From the NCBI RefSeq assembly GCF_056746865.1, contig NZ_CM163382.1: 64,000 nucleotides of DNA, one strand, 5' to 3'. A program made the translations under genes and the position numbers. Shown here piece by piece: positions 25,421 to 53,468 of this stretch (positions are counted from its first letter, which is position 1; every line of letters begins with the position of its first letter). Below the pieces are notes generated by a model. The model saw only the letters and a list, made by a program, of their open reading frames with translations. It did not search any database and had not been told where the DNA came from.

Positions 25421-26860
25421 ATGTCAGTACCCGTTCAACATCCTATGTATATCGATGGACAGTTTGTTACCTGGCGTGGAGACGCATGGATTGATGTGGT
25501 AAACCCTGCTACAGAGGCGGTCATTTCCCGCATACCCGATGGTCAGGCCGAGGATGCCCGTAAGGCAATCGATGCAGCAGAACGTGCACAACCAGAATGG
25601 GAAGCGTTGCCTGCCATTGAACGCGCCAGTTGGTTGCGCAAAATCTCCGCCGGGATCCGCGAACGCGCCGGTGAAATCAGTGCGCTGATTGTTGAAGAAG
25701 GGGGCAAGATCCAGCAGCTGGCTGAAGTTGAAGTGGCTTTTACTGCGGACTATATCGATTACATGGCGGAGTGGGCACGGCGTTATGAAGGTGAGATTAT
25801 TCAAAGCGATCGTCCAGGAGAAAATATTCTTCTGTTTAAACGTGCGCTTGGCGTGACTACCGGCATTCTGCCGTGGAACTTCCCGTTCTTCCTCATTGCC
25901 CGCAAAATGGCTCCCGCTCTTTTGACCGGTAATACCATCGTCATTAAACCCAGTGAATTTACACCAAACAATGCGATTGCTTTTGCCAAAATTGTCGATG
26001 AAATAGGCCTTCCACGCGGTGTGTTTAACCTTGTGCTGGGGCGTGGTGAAACCGTTGGGCAAGAACTGGCGGGTAACCCAAAGGTCGCAATGGTCAGTAT
26101 GACAGGCAGCGTCTCTGCAGGTGAAAAGATCATGGCGACTGCAGCAAAAAACATCACAAAAGTGTGTCTGGAATTGGGTGGTAAAGCACCAGCTATCGTA
26201 ATGGACGATGCCGATCTTGAACTGGCAGTCAAAGCCATCGTTGATTCACGCGTCATTAATAGTGGACAAGTGTGTAACTGTGCAGAACGTGTTTATGTAC
26301 AGAAAGGCATTTATGATCAGTTCGTCAATCGGCTGGGTGAAGCGATGCAGGCGGTGCAATTTGGTAACCCCGCTGAGCGCAACGACATTGCGATGGGGCC
26401 GTTGATTAACGCCGCGGCGCTGGAAAGGGTCGAGCAAAAAGTGGCGCGCGCAGTAGAAGAGGGGGCGAGAGTGGCGTTGGGGGGCAAGGCAGTAGAGGGG
26501 AAAGGATATTATTATCCGCCGACATTGCTGCTGGATGTTCGCCAGGAAATGTCGATTATGCACGAGGAAACCTTTGGCCCGGTGCTGCCAGTGGTCGCAT
26601 TTGACACGCTGGAAGAGGCTATCTCAATGGCTAATGACAGTGATTACGGCCTGACCTCATCACTCTATACCCAAAATCTGAACGTCGCGATGAAAGCCAT
26701 TAAAGGGCTGAAGTTTGGTGAAACTTACATCAACCGTGAAAACTTCGAAGCTATGCAAGGATTCCACGCCGGATGGCGTAAATCCGGTATTGGCGGCGCA
26801 GATGGCAAACATGGCCTGCATGAATACCTGCAGACCCAGGTGGTTTATTTACAGTCGTAA
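25421..26860 (+). CDS. aldA: Lactaldehyde dehydrogenase (479 aa)
   Basis: Aldehyde dehydrogenase family sequence (LELGGKAP, catalytic Cys region VCNCAERV). Confidence 0.9.
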   Translation: MSVPVQHPMYIDGQFVTWRGDAWIDVVNPATEAVISRIPDGQAEDARKAIDAAERAQPEWEALPAIERASWLRKISAGIRERAGEISALIVEEGGKIQQLAEVEVAFTADYIDYMAEWARRYEGEIIQSDRPGENILLFKRALGVTTGILPWNFPFFLIARKMAPALLTGNTIVIKPSEFTPNNAIAFAKIVDEIGLPRGVFNLVLGRGETVGQELAGNPKVAMVSMTGSVSAGEKIMATAAKNITKVCLELGGKAPAIVMDDADLELAVKAIVDSRVINSGQVCNCAERVYVQKGIYDQFVNRLGEAMQAVQFGNPAERNDIAMGPLINAAALERVEQKVARAVEEGARVALGGKAVEGKGYYYPPTLLLDVRQEMSIMHEETFGPVLPVVAFDTLEEAISMANDSDYGLTSSLYTQNLNVAMKAIKGLKFGETYINRENFEAMQGFHAGWRKSGIGGADGKHGLHEYLQTQVVYLQS

Positions 26861-26870
26861 TGAGTGAAAG

Positions 26871-26894
26871 AGGCGGAGGTTTTTTCCTCCGCCT
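26871..26894. terminator. Bidirectional terminator between convergent aldA and gapC
   Basis: Perfect 9-bp stem aggcggagg / cctccgcct with a TTTTTT loop. Confidence 0.7.
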
Positions 26895-26901
26895 GTGTGC
26901 G

Positions 26902-27903
26902 TCAGAGTTTAGCGAATTTTTCGAGGGTGCGAATGAGCTGTGTGACGAAGCCATATTCGTTATCGTACCAGGCGACCGTTTTCACCAGTTGTAAATCGCC
27001 CACGGCGGTAATTTCGGTTTGCGTGGCATCAAACACCGACCCGAAATGGCTGCCTATGATATCAGAAGAGACTATTTCTTCATCGGTATAACCAAATGAC
27101 TCGTTATTGTTTGTCGCGTTTTTAAGCGCGTTGTTCACCTCTTCGGCAGTCACTTTTTTTCCAAGAATAGACACCAGTTCAGTCACCGAACCGGTTTTCA
27201 CGGGTACGCGTTGTGCATGACCTTTCAGTTTGCCGCTCAGTTCTGGGATCACCAGACCAATGGCTTTTGCCGCCCCCGTAGTGTGGGGAATGATATTTTC
27301 TGCCGCTGCACGTGAAGCGCGTAGATCTTTACCACGCGGGCCATCCACCAGTGACTGAGTGCCGGTATAGGCATGAATGGTCGTCATCGTGCCGACTTCT
27401 ATTCCGAAACTGTCGTGCAAGGCTTTGGCCATCGGTGCAAGACAATTAGTGGTGCATGACGCCACGGAAACAATGGTGTCGTTGCCATCCAGTGTGTCGT
27501 CATTGACGTTATAAACGATGGTTTTCATTTCACCGGCAGGGGCGGAAATCAACACCTTCTTCGCACCAGCATCAAGATGCGCCTGCGATTTCTCGGCGGA
27601 GGTATAAAAGCCAGTACATTCGACAATGATTTCTGCGCCTTTCGCTTTCCACGGAATATTTTTAGCCTCTTTTTCGGCGTAAACCGCGATACTTTTCCCA
27701 TCAACGATAAGTGAATCTTCCGTAAAATCAACGCGCCAGGGGAACGGTCCATAGTTTGAATCATGTTTCAGCAGGTAGGCGAGAATTTTTGGGGAAGTGA
27801 GATCATTAATAGCGACAACATCTATGTTGCTTTTGACTTCAAGTAATCGACGCAATACCAGTCGACCGATACGACCAAAACCGTTAATACCAACTTTACT
27901 CAT
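26902..27903 (-). CDS. gapC: Glyceraldehyde-3-phosphate dehydrogenase GapC, intact 333-aa ORF
   Basis: Full-length GAPDH with NAD-binding GFGRIGR and catalytic SCTTNC; no frameshift or internal stop. Confidence 0.85.
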
Positions 27904-28091
27904 GGTTTTCTCCTGTCAGGAACGTTCGGATGAAAATTGATCCTTTCCAGGCTTAGACCAGGATGGCGGGATGGGCAATCTACATTCTTGCCGTGAAACG
28001 TAACGTACTGAAAACGGGTGAACAATATTTAATGAAATTTTAAGAAAAGCTCGTTATGTTAACGGAAAATTGTTTTAAAGCAGGAAATGTT

Positions 28092-28622
28092 ATGGAAAAT
28101 AAATACTCAAGGTTACAAATCAGCATTCACTGGCTGGTCTTTTTGCTGGTTATCGCAGCGTATTGCGCAATGGAGTTTCGTGGTTTCTTCCCACGTAGCG
28201 ATCGACCACTCATCAACATGATTCATGTTTCCTGTGGCATATCAATTCTCGTGCTGATGGTGGTTCGTCTTTTGTTAAGGCTGAAATACCCAACCCCGCC
28301 GATTATACCTAAGCCAAAACCGATGATGACGGGACTGGCGCATTTGGGACATTTGGTGATCTATCTCCTGTTTATTGCGCTGCCAGTGATTGGTTTGGTG
28401 ATGATGTATAACCGGGGTAACCCATGGTTTGCGTTTGGTTTGACGATGCCTTACGCTTCAGAGGCCAATTTCGAACGGGTTGATAGCTTAAAGTCGTGGC
28501 ATGAAATGCTGGCGAATCTGGGATATTTTGTCATCGGGTTGCACGCTGCGGCTGCACTGGCACACCACTATTTCTGGAAGGACAACACACTTCTACGCAT
28601 GATGCCGCGTAAACGTTCCTGA
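28092..28622 (+). CDS. cybB: Cytochrome b561 (about 176 aa)
   Basis: Membrane ORF starting MENKYSRLQISIHWLVFLLV with AGGAA RBS upstream; the ORF-track start at 28056 is probably too early. Confidence 0.85.
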   Translation: MENKYSRLQISIHWLVFLLVIAAYCAMEFRGFFPRSDRPLINMIHVSCGISILVLMVVRLLLRLKYPTPPIIPKPKPMMTGLAHLGHLVIYLLFIALPVIGLVMMYNRGNPWFAFGLTMPYASEANFERVDSLKSWHEMLANLGYFVIGLHAAAALAHHYFWKDNTLLRMMPRKRS

Positions 28623-28632
28623 AGGATATTTA

Positions 28633-28696
28633 AAGAAAACGCCTGTACTAAAACCGACCCGTGGTACAGGCGAAGAATACGGGTCTACATCGGAAG
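28633..28696 (-). ncRNA. rydC: RydC small regulatory RNA
   Basis: Reverse complement reads cttccgatgtagacccgtattcttcgcctgtaccacgggtcggttttagtacaggcgttttctt, which matches RydC as I remember it, including the terminal hairpin. Confidence 0.75.
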
Positions 28697-29111: not shown

Positions 29112-29309
<198 letters not shown>

Positions 29310-29650
29310 CTTGGTTCATTCGTTGGCCTCGGTTGATAGAAATATCGGTCGGGGCCTTCGTCTTTCTGATTCCCGGTTAGCCTGAAAACAGAAAGTCTCA
29401 GGCACCCGCAGGCATCCTATGAGTTTTCCTTAGGGACGAAAATAATCACTTCACGAAATTGCGTGCTGTTTTCCAGAATTTTTTGTCATTCGGTTTAGCC
29501 ATTCGTTACTCTCTTCATTCCAATAGCATTAATTTTCTCTGCAATAATTGTTGTAAAAATGTGACGCAAAGAGGTTTTTGGTCATAAGTAATTACCGTCA
29601 AGTGCCGATGACTTTCTATCAGGAGTAAACCTGGACGAGAGACAACGGTA

Positions 29651-52658: not shown

Positions 52659-53468
52659 ATGAAAGTTCAATTGTATAAATTCACGGAAGATAAAAATAAA
52701 ACCCTTACCTTCAGGTGGACGAAAAAACACTTTGAGTTTTGTATGGATAATAAAATCTTTTTAAATCATAAGGGGAAGAAGTCGTATAAAGAAAGAAATT
52801 TATTTCTTTTCTCAAAAGGTGACAAGATAACAATTGAAGATAATGTTATTGCTGAAGAATATTCAACAATGCCTGTAAAAAATTTCTCCAGTGTCGGCGC
52901 TTTTTCATTCCCGACCTGTCATTTTACAGGGAATATACATATAGGTCGATTTTGTAGTATTGCATCAAATGTAAAAATAATGGGAGGAAATCATCCTTTG
53001 AATCGTTTTACTACTCACATGATGACTTATAACGGTGAATTTGATAAGTTTGCTAAGAGTGAGTTTGAACGTAGCTGGACATTGAAACCATTCATTACCA
53101 AACCTGAAAATCCGATTATAGGAAATGATGTCTGGATAGGAAATGATGTTGTACTGAAAGGTGGCATCGCAATAGGTGATGGTGCTGTTATTGCTGCCAA
53201 TTCCGTTGTTACCAAAGATGTGCCCCCATATGCCATAGTTGCAGGAGTTCCTGCAAAAATAATCAGATTTAGATTTGATTCAAATGTTATTGATGAATTG
53301 TTGAGAATAAAGTGGTGGAATTATAATTACTCAGATCTTCCGGATAATAACAAATGTGATGATATAAATTATTTTGTTGAAGAGATGAATCGATTGATAT
53401 CAAATGGAAATATTCAAGAGATGGACTATAAAAAATTCAATCTTTCTGAGATATTTAGAGACCTATAA
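52659..53468 (+). CDS. Hexapeptide-repeat acetyltransferase of the XAT family (streptogramin A acetyltransferase Vat / CatB-like) with N- and C-terminal extensions, 269 aa
   Basis: AT-rich ORF with no K-12 counterpart that I recognise; core IGRFCSIA...GGNHPLNRF...IGNDVWIGNDVV...IGDGAVIAANSVVTKDVPPYAIVAGVPAKIIRFRFD...IKWWNY aligns by eye with remembered Vat(D)/CatB motifs; true start uncertain (weak RBS, alternative ATGs at 52743 and 52869). Confidence 0.75.
   Translation: MKVQLYKFTEDKNKTLTFRWTKKHFEFCMDNKIFLNHKGKKSYKERNLFLFSKGDKITIEDNVIAEEYSTMPVKNFSSVGAFSFPTCHFTGNIHIGRFCSIASNVKIMGGNHPLNRFTTHMMTYNGEFDKFAKSEFERSWTLKPFITKPENPIIGNDVWIGNDVVLKGGIAIGDGAVIAANSVVTKDVPPYAIVAGVPAKIIRFRFDSNVIDELLRIKWWNYNYSDLPDNNKCDDINYFVEEMNRLISNGNIQEMDYKKFNLSEIFRDL

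Follow-up and report, generated by a model that had tools for sequence, protein, structure and literature searches.

Glycolysis in Escherichia coli K-12 is served sufficiently by a single glyceraldehyde-3-phosphate dehydrogenase (GAPDH), the housekeeping, eukaryote-like GapA (b1779). A further GAPDH-type gene, gapC (b4493), is 1001 nt long and flagged as a pseudogene in K-12 MG1655, carrying the annotation 'frameshifted; internal stop' in a K-12 derivative, and an intact form of it from O157:H7 is recorded as UniProt P58072. According to a review citing Espinosa-Urgel & Kolter (1998), environmental isolates have an intact gapC and laboratory strains a truncated one, the latter being said there to 'accumulate mutations' in the gene (PMC2949598); papers citing that work, this review among them, also state that the gapC promoter shows preferential activity in fresh water. 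Chemostat cultures of K-12 contained 5.6-fold less gapC_1 transcript when rpoS was mutated (PMC4512719). The biochemistry most pertinent to GapC is that of EcGAPDH1 (7C5F/7C5H/7C5P/7C7K, Zhang et al. 2020/2021), described in a paper in which the name gapC has no occurrence (PMC8615399). This enzyme, assayed at pH 10 and 50 C, has a Km for glyceraldehyde-3-phosphate (G3P) of 0.73 mM, its activity is abolished by the C150A mutation and lowered 3.8x10^4-fold by C150S and 8x10^3-fold by H177A, and its structures show it with bound NAD+, G3P and phosphate and in the form of the thioacyl intermediate, with Arg11, Ile12 and Asp34 contacting NAD+ in the crystal (PMC8615399).

The window analyzed here, a stretch of 64,000 nucleotides of contig NZ_CM163382.1, shows 3 mismatches in 64000 bases, none of them in gapC, relative to E. 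coli 118UI (NZ_CP032515.1 1629904-1693903), a urine isolate from Mexico City, where the RefSeq annotation at the matching coordinates, WP_000048648.1, is an intact gene for a 'type I glyceraldehyde-3-phosphate dehydrogenase'. The local gene order, hrpA, a small islet, ydcF, aldA, gapC, cybB, RydC, ydcA, yncP, hokB/sokB, trg and ydcI, is that of K-12 except for the islet, and the aldA-gapC-cybB succession corresponds to b1415, b4493 and b1418. The features considered below are the following.

26902-27903, minus strand: gapC coding sequence from the ORF list, NAD-dependent GAPDH of type I, 333 aa, ATG to TGA
27910-27914, minus strand: Shine-Dalgarno AGGAG, 6 nt 5' of the gapC ATG, read from the sequence
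27865-27882, minus strand: GFGRIG (G8-F-G10-R-I-G13), gapC codons 8-13, the Rossmann-fold NAD-binding GxGxxG
27442-27459, minus strand: SCTTNC (S149-C150-T-T-N-C154), gapC codons 149-154
27787-27789, minus strand: gapC codon 39 by alignment, AAA (Lys) in the window, TAA in K-12 and ~21% of complete genomes
27154-27160, minus strand: A7 run by alignment, gene nt 744-750, codons 248-250, A6 in K-12
25421-26860, plus strand: aldA, neighbor of gapC and convergent with it
28092-28622, plus strand: cybB, the other neighbor of gapC
26871-26894, no strand assigned: GC-rich 9-bp hairpin, AGGCGGAGG / loop of 6 / CCTCCGCCT, between the convergent aldA and gapC stops
27904-28091, no strand assigned: divergent gapC-cybB intergenic region, 188 bp, which must hold the gapC promoter

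The original prediction had described a complete 333-aa frame with NAD-binding and SCTTNC motifs without giving its strand, and this description is borne out by the ORF list, the motif positions, TIGR01534 and Pfam, with the frame placed on the minus strand. Translation of 26902-27903 meets zero internal stops, and the AGGAG preceding the start codon is the same in 6/6 aligned E. coli alleles. The catalytic nucleophile Cys150 is encoded by TGC at 27454-27456, and we also found Asp34 (in AINDLTS), the acidic residue that favors NAD over NADP, together with His177 (in TTIHAYT), Thr180, Arg232, Ser120, Arg11 and Ile12. In the DLRASR stretch, both arginines have arginine counterparts in the GapA alignment. 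Against TIGR01534, the type I GAPDH model, GapC scores 446.5 bits (cutoff 367.2, E=5.5e-134) over model positions 1-330/330, and the two Pfam domains, Gp_dh_N (PF00044; residues 3-102, 122.8 bits, E=8e-36) and Gp_dh_C (PF02800; residues 155-313, 195.8 bits, E=4e-58), are both present; these scores exclude a chance ORF. Assignment to the type I GAPDHs thus has behind it the full-length model score, the two domains, the catalytic Cys/His pair and GxGxxG with Asp34.

Within the family, GapC stands apart from its E. coli paralogues. It shares with GapA the fold, the two Pfam domains, the SCTTNC active site and the reaction, but the two proteins are only 46% identical and GapC reaches 300.3 bits with the GapA-type model NF011954 (PRK15425), below the cutoff of 662. 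Epd (GapB, erythrose-4-phosphate dehydrogenase), a paralogue of the same superfamily, aligns with GapC over its full length, but GapC does not reach the Epd cutoffs (278 bits vs 530.55 for TIGR01532 and 280.5 vs 539 for NF010058), nor that of the ArsJ-associated GAPDH model NF033735 (306.9 bits vs 450). The closest PDB entries outside E. coli score 481-414 bits and are presumably from Gram-positive bacteria. Among E. coli structures, 14 GAPDH entries (7C5F and 13 related ones, wild type or mutants) match GapC at 330/333 residues over the full length. EcGAPDH1 has the same Cys150/His177 numbering and the same contact residues Arg11, Ile12, Asp34 and Ser120 as GapC, and differs from the window protein at R57S, N262Q and N265T, all of them away from the catalytic motif.

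One may ask, then, whether GapC is made but serves mainly outside glycolysis, acting on erythrose-4-phosphate as Epd does, handling arsenate like the ArsJ-associated enzymes, or moonlighting as a surface or secreted protein. In favor of such a role, Epd itself is a GAPDH paralogue with changed substrate, GAPDH moonlighting is reported for many bacteria (PMC7062713), and GapC does match both the ArsJ-type model and the Epd models, with E-values of about 1e-83 to 1e-91. These matches, however, fall far short of the respective cutoffs while the generic type I model is passed, arsJ is absent beside gapC, whose adjoining genes are aldA and cybB, and G3P with NAD+ is what the 99%-identical enzyme converts, crystals of it having been obtained with G3P and with the thioacyl intermediate (PMC8615399). 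We therefore consider a mainly non-glycolytic role very improbable. The kinetics, mutants and structures of EcGAPDH1 establish the chemistry of a GapC-type protein experimentally, so that the conversion of G3P, NAD+ and Pi to 1,3-bisphosphoglycerate (1,3-BPG) may be extrapolated to the window protein from the 330/333-identical enzyme. Because three residues differ and the assays were at pH 10 and 50 C, activity under physiological conditions is a further extrapolation. By analogy, Cys150 of GapC, activated by His177, would attack G3P, the hydride would pass to NAD+ held in the N-terminal Rossmann domain by GxGxxG and Asp34, and phosphate would cleave the thioacyl intermediate to release 1,3-bisphosphoglycerate.

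The statement in the original prediction that K-12 gapC is a frameshifted pseudogene is right but incomplete, as it names the frameshift and omits the nonsense codon. The alignment with K-12 gapC, which the prediction had named as a check, gives 40 substitutions and one gap over the whole gene (95.9% DNA identity across 1001 nt) and places two lesions, both K-12's and neither in the window: the nonsense change of the Lys39 codon from AAA to TAA, and the loss of 1 bp from the A-run at nt 744-750, which shifts the frame so that ...GKKV... becomes GKK*. The locus between aldA and cybB and the orientation of the gene are otherwise shared. When both lesions of the K-12 allele are repaired in silico, four amino acid differences are left, R18G, R57S, N262Q and N265T (window residue first), and the other differences are synonymous. 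At the DNA level gapC differs from K-12 by 4.1%, the neighboring genes by 1.3-2.8% and the gapC-cybB spacer by 4.8%, so that nothing else in the local 8 kb is as divergent from K-12 as gapC and its upstream spacer. Whether gapC is a compositionally foreign or recombinant segment was also considered; its GC content (47.9%) is near that of the whole window (48.7%) and its divergence exceeds that of the flanks only moderately, which makes no case for a recent horizontal transfer within E. coli.

As the K-12 frameshift lies in an A6/A7 homopolymer, a typical site of sequencing error, the opposite worry also deserves attention, namely that the intact frame of the window is the product of assembly or base calling at this homopolymer and the real strain is frameshifted. 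Some public assemblies do carry 383-aa gapC calls that possibly reflect homopolymer slips at the 3' end. Yet the AAA at codon 39 does not depend on any homopolymer, the identical 1002-nt gapC recurs in independent complete genomes, the exact protein WP_000048648.1 is found on at least 1000 public contigs, and A7 is the majority state across 5426 genomes, which together make such an artefact scarcely credible. The 383-aa calls arise on an otherwise window-identical allele from a recurrent 1-bp deletion that hits the TTC codon of Phe330 (gene nt 988, window ~26916), and their last 54 residues are read from the antisense strand of the 3' part of aldA, in the frame of a 67-aa ORF at 26751-26954. 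This deletion is either a real variant or a homopolymer sequencing error; it also constitutes a third gapC lesion in ET979 and Z1324SEC0014.

By implication, the original prediction had treated an intact gapC as unusual, and on this point it does not hold: most E. coli have an intact gapC, and this was in the literature already. Among 5426 complete E. coli genomes, megablast finds gapC in 5417 (99.8%), all matches being at least 90% identical, a distribution that fits the use of gapC as a qPCR marker for E. coli (PMC10614358). Exact matches to 60-nt K-12 probes centered on the TAA and on the A6 run occur in 1152 and 1046 of these genomes, respectively, which puts the share with the K-12 lesions at about 19-21%. 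The higher count for the TAA suggests that it may be the older of the two lesions, or that the flanks differ. The complementary figure of ~79% 'intact' counts these two lesions alone and would be lowered by other inactivating mutations. An evenly spaced sample of 40 matches agrees with the probe counts, 8 of its 39 full-length members being not 1002 nt long, and each of the five 1002-nt copies that we opened (118UI, ECOCN22, ATCC 25922, SRCC 1675 and 13C1079T) is annotated as intact. SRCC 1675 is an apple-cider isolate, which we take to be of serotype O157:H7. The allele group of the window is itself a minority one, with gapC at least 99% identical in only 201 genomes and 95-99% identical in most. 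As for the second GAPDH besides GapA that the original prediction had envisaged, it appears plausible: gapA is found in 5425 of the 5426 genomes, so the genome behind the window almost certainly carries gapA plus gapC, GapC and GapA are 46% identical, and the 99%-identical GapC protein is active. The two genes differ in diversity, gapA being near-uniform (at least 99% identical to K-12 gapA in 5424/5425) and gapC polymorphic with dS up to 0.2.

The distribution of the lesions bears upon their origin. The gapC of 13C1079T is almost the K-12 allele but has neither lesion, and the K-12 lesions are therefore recent events on that allele. At the same time, carriers of the lesions have been isolated from animals (pig faeces in Canada, swine, cattle and a frog), from human stool in Switzerland and from river water in Japan, a Belgian pig ETEC is also among them, and all lesion-carrying natural isolates that we examined have K-12's aldA allele (WP_000115943.1) and K-12's cybB allele. 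The occurrence of the lesions in natural isolates means that the K-12 pseudogene is an allele of a natural lineage, older than laboratory domestication. Thus one natural lineage, about one-fifth of complete genomes, has the pseudogene as a derived allele, and for E. coli and its relatives intact gapC is the common and probably the ancestral state. What PMC2949598 says about laboratory strains, namely that they 'accumulate mutations' in this gene, needs qualifying, since natural isolates carry the lesions as well.

A broader objection is that the frame is intact yet the gene is silent and contributes nothing to physiology, in which case its loss in K-12 was neutral and similar decay is under way elsewhere. 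That in one-fifth of complete genomes gapC is broken by two or even three lesions, and that GapA is enough for K-12 glycolysis, would sit comfortably with this proposal, as would the outcome of our consensus promoter scan of 26700-28200, in which no sigma-70-type site was found for gapC. The pattern of substitution speaks otherwise. Among five intact alleles, Nei-Gojobori estimates give dN/dS of 0.023-0.056 with dS of 0.05-0.21, and such low ratios indicate strong purifying selection on the GapC protein, acting over the long term that a dS of up to 0.2 implies. Orthologues with 87-96% identity are retained in E. albertii, Citrobacter, Trabulsiella, Klebsiella and Enterobacter, and gapC transcription is RpoS-dependent even in K-12 (PMC4512719). 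Considering these points together, we regard silence of the gene as improbable, if somewhat less so than the non-glycolytic alternative discussed above.

We are therefore highly confident that the window gapC is the intact allele, at its normal position, of E. coli's bacterial-type second GAPDH gene, encoding an NAD-dependent phosphorylating type I GAPDH. We infer that the strain makes GapC, probably under RpoS-type starvation or low nutrients, as an auxiliary isozyme to the housekeeping GapA. The RpoS and fresh-water reports suggest that gapC expression is sigma-S-dependent, taking place under starvation or in the environment. A more far-reaching version, in which GapC is a condition-specific isozyme under RpoS for low-nutrient or extra-intestinal water survival and its double inactivation, fixed in the K-12/ST10-like lineage that accounts for about 20% of sequenced complete genomes, marks an ecological shift of that lineage rather than laboratory domestication, we offer as a tentative idea about which we have more doubt than conviction. 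The practical consequences are modest, correct annotation of gapC being the main one. The case recalls that K-12 is no neutral reference, what looks like an 'intact pseudogene' being the species norm, and in non-K-12 E. coli (UPEC, EHEC, Nissle-type) metabolic models and knockouts need to reckon with a second active GAPDH. A modestly useful by-product is the population figure itself, ~20% of complete genomes with the K-12 lesions, natural isolates included.

The regions flanking gapC offer a few regulatory details. The aldA and gapC stop codons are separated by 41 nt, into which falls the hairpin at 26871-26894, followed on the gapC strand by CUUUCACUCAUU. Its predicted fold has -18.5 kcal/mol with z = -4.3, and 0/200 shuffles were equally stable. 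The hairpin, which has no run of 5 T and no clean U-tract, was missed by a simple scan for terminators, and for this reason we infer terminator function rather than read it from the scan; the hairpin is probably a shared terminator of both transcripts. On the other side, the 188-bp spacer between gapC and cybB has 98% mean column identity among six alleles. A TAGATT upstream of gapC was entertained as a promoter element and rejected, because K-12, O157 and 13C1079T read GAGATT there. An ORF for cybB can be drawn from an ATG at 28056 (28056-28622, 188 aa), whereas all annotations start it at 28092 (176 aa), and the extra 36 nt lie inside the regulatory spacer shared with gapC. Rfam models detect in the window RydC and sok alone, neither overlapping gapC: the RydC sRNA (28633-28696, minus strand; 92.5 bits, 100% identity to K-12) just downstream of cybB, and, adjoining it, the hokB/sokB type I toxin-antitoxin locus (29112-29407, minus strand; sok model 111.5 bits). 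In ATCC 25922 (locus positions 1237-1792), where gapC is intact, both trg and hokB are annotated as truncated remnants, indicating a deletion between them.

Other parts of the window also depart from K-12. The islet between hrpA and ydcF, ~1.15 kb at 23196-24350, stands in place of 142 bp of K-12 and contains a SMI1/KNR4-family gene (23540-24034, minus strand), an overlapping gene for a 99-aa hypothetical protein (23244-23543, minus strand) and a remnant (24243-24308). In SRCC 1675 and ECOCN22 the same site is occupied by a different hypothetical gene of 378 nt, and the site is therefore variable. Between ydbL and a ydbA-type autotransporter gene the window has 425 bp (3945-4369), where K-12 has about 19 kb with feaR, feaB, tynA and the whole paaZ-paaY phenylacetate cluster (b1384-b1400); this catabolic cluster is absent from the 3945-4369 stretch. 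The autotransporter gene that follows (4370-10189, plus strand) is a single open frame of 1939 aa, whereas K-12 ydbA (b4492) is a pseudogene in three fragments, split by IS2D and IS30C, so that ydbA is, besides gapC, a second K-12 pseudogene that is intact in the window. Finally, a CatB-related O-acetyltransferase gene, so named in the annotation of 118UI, lies between patD and yncL (52659-53468, plus strand).
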